DNA of 46,563 bases from a virus. Taxonomy: Duplodnaviria; Heunggongvirae; Uroviricota; Caudoviricetes. A model generated the notes under the pieces. That model did not search any database and was not told the DNA's origin. It saw only the letters and a list, made by a program, of their open reading frames with translations. Positions 40,410 through 45,195 of this stretch are shown here, piece after piece (positions within the stretch are counted from its first letter, which is position 1; each line of letters begins with the position of its first letter). The stretch spans positions 1 to 46,563 of IMG/VR virus record IMGVR_UViG_2721755658_000005. The stretch is one strand, 5' to 3'. Made by a program: the position numbers and the translations under genes.

Positions 40410-40420
40410 ACGCCCTCCAA

Positions 40421-40506: not shown

Positions 40507-41133
40507 ATGGAAACGGTTGGTCAGCGTATAAAAGCTCTGAGAAGAGTTACCGGAACGTCCCAGAAAGAATTGGGTAAATTTTGTGGAGTAAGCGACGTTG
40601 CTGTGGGGTACTGGGAGAAAGACATCAATACCCCTGGTGGGGAGGCACTTTCGAAATTAGCGAAGTTCTTCAATACGTCAATAGATTACATTCTTTATGG
40701 TGCTGAGTTTGAAGGCAAACTCGTCACAAACATGCGCAGAGTTCCTGTAATATCGTGGGTTCAGGCTGGGCAGTTTACTGAGTGCAGGGCAGCAGAAGTG
40801 TTTAGTGAAGTGGACAAGTGGGTAGATACATCATTAAAGATTGGTGATAACTCATTTGCATTAGAGGTTAAAGGTGACTCCATGACTAACCCTAATGGCC
40901 TCCCAACAATACCAGAAGGCGCAACAGTGATTGTAGATCCAGATGCAGAACCTCGTCATGGAAAAATAGTCATCGCTCGACTTGATGGAACAAACGAAGC
41001 TACAGTAAAAAAATTAGTCATCGATGGCCCTCAAAAGTTTTTAGTGCCATTAAATCCTCGGTATCCCAACATCCCTATCAATGGTAATTGCCTTATCATT
41101 GGTGTAGTCAAAGGAGTTCAATACGAACTCTAA
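40507..41133 (+). CDS. CI-type repressor (XRE HTH + S24 LexA-like peptidase domain)
   Basis: The N-terminal HTH is IKALRRVTGTSQKELGKFCGVSDVAVGYWE. The C-terminal part carries GDSM and VKKL (Ser/Lys dyad). Confidence 0.9.
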   Translation: METVGQRIKALRRVTGTSQKELGKFCGVSDVAVGYWEKDINTPGGEALSKLAKFFNTSIDYILYGAEFEGKLVTNMRRVPVISWVQAGQFTECRAAEVFSEVDKWVDTSLKIGDNSFALEVKGDSMTNPNGLPTIPEGATVIVDPDAEPRHGKIVIARLDGTNEATVKKLVIDGPQKFLVPLNPRYPNIPINGNCLIIGVVKGVQYEL

Positions 41134-41186: not shown

Positions 41187-41215
41187 TTGCCATGATAACT
41201 AAGTTAAGTTAGATT
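41187..41215 (+). promoter_or_regulatory. PL-like promoter overlapped by an operator
   Basis: TTGCCA, 17 nt, TAGATT. The operator ACTAAGTTAAGTTAG (41198-41212) lies inside the spacer and -10. Further ACTAAG half-sites occur at 41149 and 41162. Confidence 0.55.
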
Positions 41216-41304
41216 TTATATCAAAGATAACGAACAGGCAGGACGCCCACGAAGTAGCCGCCTGGGGCATATGAAGTCCAGGATGATTCGTTAGCAACAA
41301 AAAA

Positions 41305-41335
41305 GCGCCCTACAGGACGCTTAGCTCTTTAACAA
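41305..41335 (+). promoter_or_regulatory. nut-like site: small hairpin followed by a boxA-like element
   Basis: AGCTCTTTAACAA (41323-41335) matches the rrn boxA TGCTCTTTAACAA at 12/13 positions. The hairpin GCGCCC-TACA-GGACGC precedes it. Confidence 0.5.
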
Positions 41336-41380: not shown

Positions 41381-41587
41381 ATGCACAAAACAGAACCCAA
41401 AATCGTCGCGCCTGGCTACACAGATGAGGAAATTTATGAGTGGATGACAAAGAAGCTGGCAGCTATAAACCAGCTTCGTGAAGTGCTGTCTTATCGACAG
41501 GAAACAATAGACTCCTTAAAAAAACTGGATCAGGAAATCACGGTTTTATCACAGGATGTTACTTTAGATATTGTGCAGACAAATTAG
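41381..41587 (+). CDS. hypothetical 68-aa coiled-coil protein, first gene of the PL operon
   Basis: The ATG at 41381 has a GAGGAG Shine-Dalgarno. There is no Arg-rich N-like motif. Confidence 0.5.
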   Translation: MHKTEPKIVAPGYTDEEIYEWMTKKLAAINQLREVLSYRQETIDSLKKLDQEITVLSQDVTLDIVQTN

Positions 41588-41993
41588 GATCCCATTCATT
41601 TTCGTCAAAATCATCAAAGTGATGAATTTGTGATCTCCAGTCTCGATAATCTAAAAATTTCTGGGCGGTTACGCTTATTTTATCAAGTGTGAGTTCATCC
41701 TGAATTGAAAGAAGAAGTTCATCAAATTTCATCTCATTAATCTGTTTTGGCATCCAGTGATGCTTCATCAGAATAAGGTGAACCAGAGCCTTTTTCCCAT
41801 TCAATTGATTATAGGGAGTGCCGAATTTCTTCCGGTGCTCATGTAAGACAAGGTCCAAAAGAGTAAGTAATGTTGCCCTTGATTCAACTTTGCTTATTTC
41901 GACTGATGACACTACCCCACTGATTTCAATGCCCCGATACTTTCCAACATTTTCACAGTGGGATTTGTACAGCGTATAGATATTACCGGACAT
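41559..41993 (-). CDS. hypothetical 144-aa protein (AT-rich, opposite orientation to the PL operon)
   Basis: The ORF has an AAGGA Shine-Dalgarno and is convergent with 41381-41587, overlapping it. Confidence 0.55.
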   Translation of the reverse strand: MSGNIYTLYKSHCENVGKYRGIEISGVVSSVEISKVESRATLLTLLDLVLHEHRKKFGTPYNQLNGKKALVHLILMKHHWMPKQINEMKFDELLLSIQDELTLDKISVTAQKFLDYRDWRSQIHHFDDFDENEWDPNLSAQYLK

Positions 41994-42133
41994 TTCTTTT
42001 CCTTTTGCGTTGTTGGGGATAACCAGATTAACCGAATCCTTGTTGTTGGGGAATAACTAGGTCCACCTCGCCTGATGTGGCTAAAAGCAGGCACATAACA
42101 GCTAAGTATTTTCAACCAGAGAGAATCCTTAGC

Positions 42134-42420
42134 GTTGTGGTGAATGCGGCTCAGCGCACGCGGGTTAAGGTTGAGGCTGACAGTCGACCTTCTGTGGATA
42201 CCCACCCGCCTGGTGTGCAACCTTCACCCGGCACCACAACTTTATGCTGTGTGTAGTCCTGGCGGTACCAGTTTGTACCCTTGCTTCCGGCTGGTACCGT
42301 CCTTTTTACAAAACAGAGAAGAGCATCACCGGACGACGGGCTCATAACCCAATCCATCCGGGCGGCTGCCACCGCAGGTGTTCTTCTCTGTTTTGTGGAG
42401 AAACTAACCGCCCCTACGGG
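42134..42420 (+). ncRNA. candidate structured RNA or leader (unclassified; strand uncertain)
   Basis: There are long helices. H1 pairs 42134-42142 with 42232-42240 (9 bp). H2, nested inside H1, pairs 42161-42173 with 42218-42230 (12 of 13 bp). H3 pairs 42263-42271 with 42291-42299 (9 bp). H4 pairs 42308-42322 with 42382-42396 (15 bp). A terminal hairpin GCCCC-TAC-GGGGC is followed by ATTT. Only implausible ORFs are present. Confidence 0.35.
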
Positions 42421-42520
42421 GGCATTTATGGAAATGTAATTGACTCAATAATCGCCGGACGGTGAGGGCTTCCTTTTACCCGAATTCAGCGCGGTGCAGC
42501 GCATATACGTGGAGAACAAA

Positions 42521-43057
42521 ATGTCATTTATTAAAACTTTTTCCGGGAAGCATTTTTATTATGACAGGATAAATAAAGACGACATCGTTATTAACGATAT
42601 CGCGGTTTCCCTTTCAAATATCTGTCGCTTTGCAGGACATCTTTCACACTTCTACAGTGTCGCCCAACATGCGGTGCTTTGCAGCCAGCTGGTGCCGCAG
42701 GAATTTGCTTTTGAAGCTTTAATGCATGATGCAACAGAAGCATATTGCCAGGACATCCCCGCACCACTGAAACGACTTCTTCCTGACTATAAACGGATGG
42801 AAGAAAAAATAGACGCCGTAATCCGTGAGAAATACGGGTTACCTCCTGTTATGAGCACGCCAGTGAAATATGCCGATCTCATTATGCTGGCAACCGAACG
42901 CCGCGATCTCGGGCTTGATGATGGCTCTTTCTGGCCTGTGCTGGAAGGTATCCCGGCAACAGAGATGTTCAACGTGATTCCACTGGCTCCAGGCCATGCC
43001 TACGGGATGTTTATGGAACGCTTTAACGAATTATCGGAGTTACGCAAATGCGCATGA
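42521..43057 (+). CDS. HD-domain phosphohydrolase (YfbR-like 5'-nucleotidase type)
   Basis: CRFAGHLSHFYSVAQHAV...LMHDATEAYCQDIP supplies the H..HD..D motifs. The ATG at 42521 has a GGAGA Shine-Dalgarno. Confidence 0.8.
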   Translation: MSFIKTFSGKHFYYDRINKDDIVINDIAVSLSNICRFAGHLSHFYSVAQHAVLCSQLVPQEFAFEALMHDATEAYCQDIPAPLKRLLPDYKRMEEKIDAVIREKYGLPPVMSTPVKYADLIMLATERRDLGLDDGSFWPVLEGIPATEMFNVIPLAPGHAYGMFMERFNELSELRKCA

Positions 43058-45119: not shown

Positions 45120-45165
45120 TGGTGCCGATAATAGGAGTCGAACCTACGACCTTCGCATTACGAAT
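45120..45165 (-). repeat. int-proximal att junction (phage-supplied 3' 46 nt of thrW)
   Basis: Identical to 3620-3665. Confidence 0.9.
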
Positions 45166-45195
45166 GCGCTGCTCTACCAACTGAGCTATATCGGC
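45120..45195 (-). tRNA. thrW: tRNA-Thr (anticodon CGU)
   Basis: The reverse complement reads GCCGATATAGCTCAGTTGGTAGAGCAGCGCATTCGTAATGCGAAGGTCGTAGGTTCGACTCCTATTATCGGCACCA. It is 76 nt and cloverleaf-compatible, with anticodon loop TTCGTAA. Confidence 0.95.

Follow-up and report, generated by a model that had tools for sequence, protein, structure and literature searches.

We analyzed the segment that lies between a 144-aa gene on the minus strand (41559-41993) and an HD phosphohydrolase gene (42521-43057) in a 46,563-nt DNA from a virus of the Caudoviricetes (IMG/VR record IMGVR_UViG_2721755658_000005, positions 1 to 46,563; the whole stretch is referred to here as the window). The window represents a prophage of the lambdoid SfII/SfV/e14/ST64B kind, and in the segment, RNA modules that move independently form a mosaic on the plus strand of an early-left, PL-type, repressor-controlled operon. 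From 5' to 3', these are (i) module A, a closed multi-helix domain (42134-42240) with helix H1, a conserved 5' hairpin (UGCG-GCUCAG-CGCA, 42145-42158) and helix H2; (ii) a predicted Hfq-type small RNA (sRNA) of approx. 65 nt (42241-42307), which forms a DicF-type unit of AU-rich linker, seed, stem-loop H3 and U-run; and (iii) module B, a three-way junction (42308-42396) closed by helix H4 and defined by covariation in an alignment of 73 unique junction sequences (alignment A1). The modules are conserved, structured on the plus strand, non-coding and found independently of each other.

Homologues were collected by a pattern scan of representative genomes and viral contigs and by BLAST against phage and E. 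coli collections, which yielded several hundred homologous loci across the Enterobacterales, including a match in 2814 of the 5426 complete E. coli genomes. The loci show a recurrent series, i.e., a closed domain (GUUGUGGUG...CACCACAAC), a short single-stranded stretch, a terminator hairpin with U-run, the three-way junction, the tail GGAGAAAC, a further hairpin and the ribosome-binding site of whichever gene comes first. Members of the series occur apart: phage phiES15 and the Qin prophage carry module A without the junction, and most loci carry the junction without module A.

The initial annotation had described a GC-rich segment with four long helices and no plausible protein, as a candidate large structured RNA or leader of the HD gene. 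The GC content (0.55-0.56 over 42100-42400 vs. 0.35-0.45 in the flanks) and all four helices were borne out by direct inspection of the sequence. H1 (42134-42142 with 42232-42240) pairs at 9 of 9 positions and H2 (42161-42173 with 42218-42230) at 12 of 13; H3 (42263-42271 with 42291-42299, 9 of 9) extends to approx. 11-13 pairs and is followed by TTTTT (42303-42307); H4 (42308-42322 with 42382-42396, 15 of 15) extends to 20 pairs (42308-42327 with 42377-42396, two of them G-U), designated P1 here. For the interior of H4, the pairings CCGGA/TCCGG (42329-42333 with 42357-42361; helix P2, five pairs) and GCGG/CCGC (42362-42365 with 42372-42375; helix P3, four pairs) stood, while the proposed CACC/GGTG register disagrees with the covariation, which puts CAUC opposite GGUG at the upper end of the long stem and leaves 42328 as a junction base that varies. 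The proposed last hairpin, GCCCC (42410-42414)-TACG-GGGGC (42419-42423) followed by ATTT, is likewise present, 98 nt before the ATG at 42521.

On the plus strand, 42120-42500 folded at -152.4 kcal/mol (z = -3.98, matched by 0 of 100 shuffles), as compared to z = -2.57 for the minus strand. H4 alone (z = -7.3; 0 of 200 shuffles) contributes the bulk of this signal; the predicted sRNA reached z = -2.6 and H1/H2 alone only z = -1.9. The folding excess, the covariation and the gene context all agree with the proposed structured plus-strand RNA in a PL-type early-left operon.

The proposal of one large structured RNA, or of a ligand-sensing riboswitch leading the HD gene, fared differently. The segment does lie directly 5' of that gene, and in its entirety it is more stably folded than shuffled sequence. 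However, modules A and B occur separately and in other orders in other phages, and the downstream gene in relatives is yfdP, an rdgC-like gene, xis, kil, dicB or tciA; since it differs among relatives, a nucleotide-sensing riboswitch is without comparative support. Rather than being an inner part of a larger fold, H3 represents the intrinsic terminator of the sRNA unit, and a terminator with U-run in mid-segment, upstream of the junction, is in the wrong order for an expression platform. Moreover, the last approx. 120 nt before the HD start (42405-42525) fold ordinarily (z = +0.1). We regard a single RNA or riboswitch leader as very improbable.

Rfam scans with E-value and gathering thresholds, one of the checks proposed initially, were performed on the window plus 19 related loci. 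At threshold they returned only tRNAs and the true DicF of Qin; no family reached threshold for the segment, and AgvB, AsxR, C4 and IsrK were absent from the matches. A weak match to ftsZ-DE (RF02985; 18 bits vs. a threshold of 72) was seen on the minus strand at 42102-42161, over the conserved 5' region of module A. It aligns a hairpin plus CACCACAAC and is probably due to chance, though odd in that DicF targets ftsZ.

Proteins have been annotated over the segment, i.e., SfII_35 in phage SfII, ymfH in the e14 prophage of K-12 and "hypothetical protein" in many E. coli genomes, several records carrying open reading frames (ORFs) of 103-113 codons. In addition, a genetic screen reportedly identified a ymfH clone as triggering RcaT, the toxin of retron-Sen2 (bioRxiv 10.1101/2020.06.22.160242). 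Nevertheless, in line with the initial annotation, which saw no plausible protein here, no conserved reading frame was found among homologues. The ORF starting at the conserved ATG (42144) ranged from 7 to 140 codons across 78 unique homologues, variable columns were distributed over the codon positions as 38/39/41 (i.e., no third-position bias) and indels were not multiples of three. The length of the junction varies by single bases (104, 105, 106, 107 or 108 nt), and the would-be ORF straddles two independently occurring modules. Arg, Cys and Leu abound in the predicted products, which is expected when GC-rich helices are translated, and the retron-Sen2 result is equally explicable by RNA. 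That the segment encodes a small protein is hardly credible to us; the named K-12 protein YmfH, SfII_35 and many similar hypothetical proteins are probably annotation artefacts of GC-rich helices. If ymfH is not a protein, the published phenotype of the ymfH clone would be an RNA effect. In K-12 e14 (locus L035, 3018-3329), ymfH overlies the sRNA unit and a degenerate junction with the loop UUAAUAA.

The predicted small RNA and its scaffold

The single-stranded seed of the predicted sRNA, UGCUGUGUGUAGUC (42245-42258), is identical at 14 of 14 positions to RprA, whose sequence was returned by a full-text search with the single-stranded stretch preceding H3. The seed falls within the invariant or most conserved part of the Rfam RprA consensus, and, as in RprA, the conserved seed AUUGCUGUGUGUAGUCUUU stands directly 5' of a terminator, here the stem-loop H3 (42261-42301) with its U-run (42303-42307). 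Across the 75 unique module A copies, at least four unrelated terminator hairpins follow the retained seed, which points to selection on the seed itself. In prophages of the type represented by locus L016, 27 nt identical to RprA are followed by an RprA-like terminator (ATTGCTGTGTGTAGTCTTTGCCCATC), and these relatives score 40-41 bits with the RprA model (RF00034) against a gathering score of 70. The window itself gave no match to this family, and nothing in it corresponds to the 5' 58 nt of RprA. The predicted 65-nt RNA folds with the same architecture as the 47-nt processed form of RprA, i.e., the last 47 nt of that RNA, which is made by RNase E and active in vivo (PMC9262595; PMC6202311). 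The complement of the seed had no better-than-chance match elsewhere in the window.

Features of DicF were also found, namely the position in the operon, a flanking H1-type domain and the terminator. A weak match of the window to the DicF model is attributable to the start of H3, GGCGGUACCAG, which resembles DicF; the score of this model was 28.5 bits on e14 and 76.7 bits on the true DicF of Qin, which served as positive control.

Module A is supported by three independent compensatory double changes in H1, in phage P1, phiES15 and Qin. A 27-nt block in its 5' part, GTGGTGAATGCGGCTNAGCGCACGCGG, recurs in the Qin spacer that separates dicF from dicB, in the ban operon of phage P1, where it lies between upl and tciA, and in Cronobacter phage phiES15, upstream of kil. 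With the STnc100 model (RF02076; gathering score 47), phiES15 scored 40.6, Qin 34.4, P1 33.4 and e14 29.2 bits, all of them significant though below threshold. In the window, the closing helix typical of STnc100 is present around a branched domain (H1, 9/9 pairs) and followed by a terminator (H3), and the internal hairpin CCGGGAGGCACCCGG is missing. The scaffold belongs with STnc100/PasD and the DicF precursor, and the seed with RprA, the window copy being below the thresholds of all three families. The Pas sRNAs and AgvB/AsxR, which were also considered, are late-region sRNAs according to the literature and do not correspond to the element in the window.

In phiES15 (locus L034, 1569-1669), the RprA model can also be aligned over its full length, at 41 bits, to the 3' half of the STnc100-like element, the middle hairpin of RprA falling on CCGGGAGGCACCCGG. 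It may be that the entire RprA and this scaffold of prophage sRNAs are related by common descent.

Literature searches with the element's own sequences, with "RprA-like" and for tRNA-like elements in lambdoid phages returned only the RprA sequence as relevant. No phage RprA-like sRNA was described in the literature found, though a description in older work on dicF-like sequences or RprA is possible. As far as we could find, neither the three-way junction nor the joining, within a PL operon, of an STnc100-type scaffold with the RprA seed and a terminator of DicF type has been described.

The three-way junction

Strong covariation was found for H4 once homologues had been collected, a check that the initial annotation had called for. 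In alignment A1, 95.6% of the cells are paired and 11 pairs are changed on both sides; none of 500 shuffles reached the observed covariation score, a statistic inflated by kinship among the sequences, and all slid registers fell to 39-54% paired. Both the control with slid registers and the count of pair types nevertheless speak for a real structure. Above its five pairs, P2 carries three G-C tip pairs that present an anticodon-arm-like loop (GGG, 42338-42340; CUCAUAA, 42341-42347; CCC, 42348-42350), together with the conserved stretch AAUCCA. Neither the long form of the junction seen here nor the short form considered below matched any Rfam family.

We also considered that the inverted repeats might act as DNA, i.e., as protein sites, cruciforms or recombination hotspots that create the mosaicism. 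Long perfect inverted repeats are indeed present, and module edges coincide with mosaic joints between phages. On the other hand, the U:G pair 42326/42378 is kept in 68 of the 73 sequences of A1 and, like other G-U variants, would be A-C on the other strand, so the pairing fits the plus strand only. Likewise, our own junction covariance model, E-values from which are rough, gave 121.7 bits on the plus and 43.9 bits on the minus strand, the U-run and seed are directional, and the compensatory changes keep pairing rather than sequence. A role as DNA is, in our view, a highly improbable account.

As the first homologue sets had been gathered via the loop sequence, the invariance of the loop in these sets was circular; another 252 copies were therefore collected with search patterns restricted to the GGAGAA tail and the 3' strand of P1. 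Among these loop-independent copies, GACGGGCUCAUAACCCAAUCCA was dominant, approx. one quarter had CUCAUUC in place of CUCAUAA, and a minor type had one G fewer. Judged from these sequences, the firm core of the junction is GGG-YUCAU...CCCAAUC. Phage P1 has two junction copies, with tips GGGGUCAUAUCCC and GGGUUCAUAUCCC, one of which abuts module A. The leader of the P1 ban operon (locus L033, 215-2432) is a chain of an annotated dicF-like region, tRNA-Asn, tRNA-Thr, the junction copies, module A, tciABC and tRNA-Ile(CAU); the junction copies lie at 1144-1256, antisense to the annotated plp, and at 1429-1507, abutting module A (1500-1627). The opposite-strand plp and upl annotations of P1 may merit re-examination.

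The P2 hairpin stays invariant between phages whose immunity regions differ and therefore probably has a specific partner of host origin. Its tip, CGGGCUCAUAACCC, is identical over 14 nt to the anticodon arm of E. coli initiator tRNA. One reading of the junction is thus a tRNA mimic, in which P2 would titrate or engage a reader of the initiator anticodon arm, e.g., the 30S P site with initiation factor 3, methionyl-tRNA synthetase or a VapC-type nuclease. The UCAU of the loop is kept in the phage P1 copies. In addition, the junction model detected, at E ~1e-7, a short form of 70-71 nt in lambdoid phages of Klebsiella and Raoultella. This form is placed behind the final tRNA gene of an array in the late operon, with a 6-nt spacer as between the tRNA genes, and ends in a 6-bp helix plus A/G and CCA in 15 of 15 copies, the sequence beyond being variable. 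Several observations speak against mimicry. No D arm or T loop was found in the junction, and the short form gave no ARAGORN call and no match to the Rfam tRNA model (RF00005) at E<=10. The one quarter of copies with CUCAUUC have no purine at the position equivalent to 37, the stem under the three G-C pairs is irregular, and the long form has no CCA end. A tRNA mimic consequently strikes us as unlikely, if conceivable; it would concern the junction only and be compatible with our account of the rest of the segment. Under it, a single decoy or competitor for a reader of the arm might be delivered by two routes, an equally tentative extension: in early leaders via an RNase III-type stem (window, e14, SfII, ST64B and P1) and at the end of tRNA arrays (Klebsiella and Raoultella).

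Other candidates were set aside. The junction sequence by itself ruled out a hammerhead or other small ribozyme, a K-turn and a boxA in P1, where the window has GUUCUU in paired form. An attP remnant was rejected, since the match to tRNA-fMet spans no more than 14 nt and the prophage is located at a gene for tRNA-Thr (45120-45195, at the prophage junction), the sole ARAGORN call in the window.

The presumed early-left transcript and flanking features

The gene order of the window, i.e., cro, cI, PL with operators, the RNA modules, then xis and int, is the same in SfII, mEp460 and e14. An S24/HTH repressor gene is located at 40507-41133 (plus strand), followed by a putative PL identified by promoter scan (41187-41215, plus strand; TTGCCA-17-TAGATT), which is overlapped by the operator AACTAAGTTAAGTTAG (41197-41212); the operator half-sites AACTAAGNNNNNNTTAG also occur between cro and cI, at 40420 and 40468. 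From this arrangement we infer that the putative PL is the source of the transcript that carries all RNA modules. Downstream of it lies a plus-strand ORF of 68 codons (41381-41587) that is overlapped by the 3' end of the minus-strand 144-aa gene; neither had a Pfam match. The HD gene, with a weak YfbR-like match, is a yfdR homologue and is followed by a DUF551 gene, xis and int. The relatives As1/ST64B and mEp460 have yfdP-yfdQ-yfdR after the modules; the HD gene adjoins the segment because yfdP and yfdQ are missing here.

The 144-aa gene, to which the early transcript would run antisense, has its own terminators (41477-41452 and 41322-41303) and occupies a typical moron slot, which holds other minus-strand genes in relatives (SfII_36, ymfI and mEp460_037).

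A perfect rrn-type boxA, GCTCTTTAACAA (41324-41335, plus strand), is located approx. 100 nt after the putative PL, just past the hairpin 41303-41322, and suggests Nus-factor antitermination of a long untranslated early transcript. As a general companion of the modules, an rrn-type boxA was rejected: GCTCTTTAA occurs within 2 kb upstream in only approx. 9% of the junction-bearing loci, and boxA is therefore tied to the immunity type and not to the RNA modules.

Antitermination could alternatively reside in the junction, as a cis-acting modifier of RNA polymerase like the put RNAs of HK022, which are two stem-loops shortly after an early promoter, enabling read-through of terminators or Rho sites. 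In favor of such a role, the junction always stands in the early operon before the first translated gene, at one locus (L011) approx. 30 nt after a promoter-like sequence; no N-like protein is evident in these phages, the 68-aa ORF being without a Pfam hit; and the invariance of the loop across immunity types suggests a host partner rather than a phage-specific protein. Yet the junction mostly lies 3' of the sRNA terminator and thus cannot act on it, the short form ends tRNA arrays with RCCA, outside any antiterminator context, and the window has a boxA of its own. A put-like function appears decidedly unlikely.

Several smaller features flank the modules. Upstream of H1, the conserved block CCACCTCGCCTGATGTGGCTAAAAGCAGGCAC (42063-42094, plus strand) recurs in phiES15, e14, SfII and loci L008, L009 and L018, as well as in several Enterobacter, Kosakonia and Mixta loci; in L018 it stands directly 5' of the RprA-like seed, without module A. 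This block may be either a further RNA module or a control region of the minus-strand 144-aa gene. Two direct repeats, GTTGTTGGGGA, are located at 42009 and 42042.

On the downstream side, the tail GGAGAAAC (42397-42404, plus strand), directly 3' of P1, is nearly invariant in A1 and Shine-Dalgarno-like, yet reading of the sequence revealed no start codon at a usable distance. It is followed by the hairpin GCCCC-UACG-GGGGC (42410-42423, plus strand), in place of which nearly all relatives have a hairpin of differing sequence. A hairpin GCGC-GGUGCA-GCGC (42489-42502), the Shine-Dalgarno sequence GGAG (42511-42514) and the ATG of the HD gene complete the leader on the plus strand. Hairpins with (G/U)UGCA(G) loops recur in the window, mEp460 (locus L003), L007, L008 and L021, where they closely precede the Shine-Dalgarno sequence that serves the first post-junction gene, and UGCA-type loops are also frequent in P3 of the junction (e.g. 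GCGA-UUGCAG-UCGC). These hairpins could represent a shared protein-binding or 5'-stabilizing element.

Proposed processing and relation to known systems

Overall, we favor, as the probable account, that the segment is the untranslated, processed front of a repressor-controlled early-left transcript, built of freely recombining RNA modules. The processing steps and the sRNA function are proposed by analogy. When the S24 repressor is inactivated or leaky, transcription from PL would run through the segment. RNase III would cut H1, the closing helix of module A, as in the DicF-flanking helices of Qin dicBF, and RNase E would cut the AU-rich linker past H1. With the 3' end set by the intrinsic terminator H3, forms of approx. 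170 nt and approx. 65 nt of an Hfq-type sRNA would arise, the seed of which would act, as in RprA and its 47-nt form, on host mRNAs or on sRNA partners read by it. Read-through of H3 would lead to transcription of the junction, where the 20-bp P1 may serve as a second RNase III-type helix that separates the sRNA part from the downstream mRNA and frees or displays the P2 hairpin of the P2/P3 core. In Qin, DicF is processed by RNase III as well as RNase E and has terminator-defined 3' ends (PMC5069750; bioRxiv 10.1101/2023.04.14.536235). The reported species of 190 nt and 72 nt (offsets of 137 nt and 19 nt), placed on the Qin sequence, would put both RNase III cuts in H1-type helices.

A number of observations weigh against this account. 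The PL transcript must cross 435 nt antisense to the 144-aa gene, with a weak terminator-like site (41662-41677) in its path, and the promoter scan found no separate plus-strand candidate between that gene and H1. Within module A, H1 comprises only 9 bp, which is short for RNase III unless stacked on the inner helices, and an 18-nt deletion in the window copy removes the hairpin CCGGGAGGCACCCGG that is kept by its relatives SfII, e14, ST64B, phiES15, P1 and Qin. For the sRNA unit, the window copy had no STnc100 or RprA match at E<=10 and matched DicF (RF00039) with only 15.7 bits at 42248-42302 (threshold 48); H3 has a 19-nt loop and only five U, so that terminator strength is uncertain. Lastly, the junction is assigned a processing role by analogy only, and that role would leave the conserved hairpin loop unexplained. 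The deletion (42209-42226) lies between the short direct repeats CACCCGG and CACCGGG. The scaffold copy in the window may thus be partly disabled, with seed and terminator intact. We are more confident of the sRNA unit than of the role of the junction.

About half of the complete E. coli genomes, K-12 included (e14, under the annotation ymfH), carry the RprA seed in a phage-borne copy; prophage induction or leaky early transcription may therefore feed the network of RprA and processed RprA, and effects credited to RprA could have a second source. DicF, STnc100/PasD and RprA, so far regarded as distinct sRNA families, appear linked as one modular system with a shared scaffold and exchangeable seeds and terminators, which bears on the origin of core sRNAs such as RprA. 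The junction is a strongly covarying, widespread motif absent from Rfam, which could serve the phage against translation or tRNA-directed defence; if it were a tRNA mimic, it would represent a new kind of phage counter-defence or translation-control RNA.

The RNase III sites in the early mRNAs of T7 and in the lambda N leader are simple hairpins with an internal loop. The junction resembles them in placing a near-perfect helix of approx. 20 bp between early-operon cistrons, but in the window the helix encloses a branched domain whose hairpin loop is invariant, which a mere cleavage signal would have no need of. With the initiator tRNA, the junction has in common the three G-C pairs that close the 7-nt loop CUCAUAA, and the short form is tRNA-like in its place in tRNA arrays, its size and its RCCA end; in contrast to a tRNA, the junction is three-way and not four-way, and its long form has a 20-bp stem without CCA.

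The sRNA unit shares with RprA the identical 14-nt seed in the same place 5' of a terminator and the same two-part architecture, and in Enterobacter and Buttiauxella-type prophages the likeness extends to 27 nt and an RprA-like terminator. Unlike RprA, the unit in the window does not include the first 58 nt with the rpoS-pairing region, has another terminator and is phage-borne, on a polycistronic transcript rather than under an Rcs-controlled promoter. With STnc100/PasD, the element shares the closing helix (UGGUGAAU...CACCA), a single-stranded stretch before an intrinsic terminator and, in relatives of the window copy, the hairpin CCGGGAGGCACCCGG, as well as prophage carriage in several positions and copies. 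It differs from STnc100 in the sequence of the 5' hairpin and in the seed, and from STnc100/PasD in its early-left location, as compared to the late or stx-adjacent places described for those sRNAs. DicF, in turn, has a different seed (UUUCUGGUGACGUUU) and a module order unlike that of the window, and Qin has no three-way junction. However, both systems lie in a repressor-controlled early operon, place an sRNA with its own terminator between domains closed by GUUGUGG/CCACAAC-type helices, and have in common the terminator start GGCGGUAYCAG and the H1/H2 domain, which is homologous to the dicF-dicB spacer.

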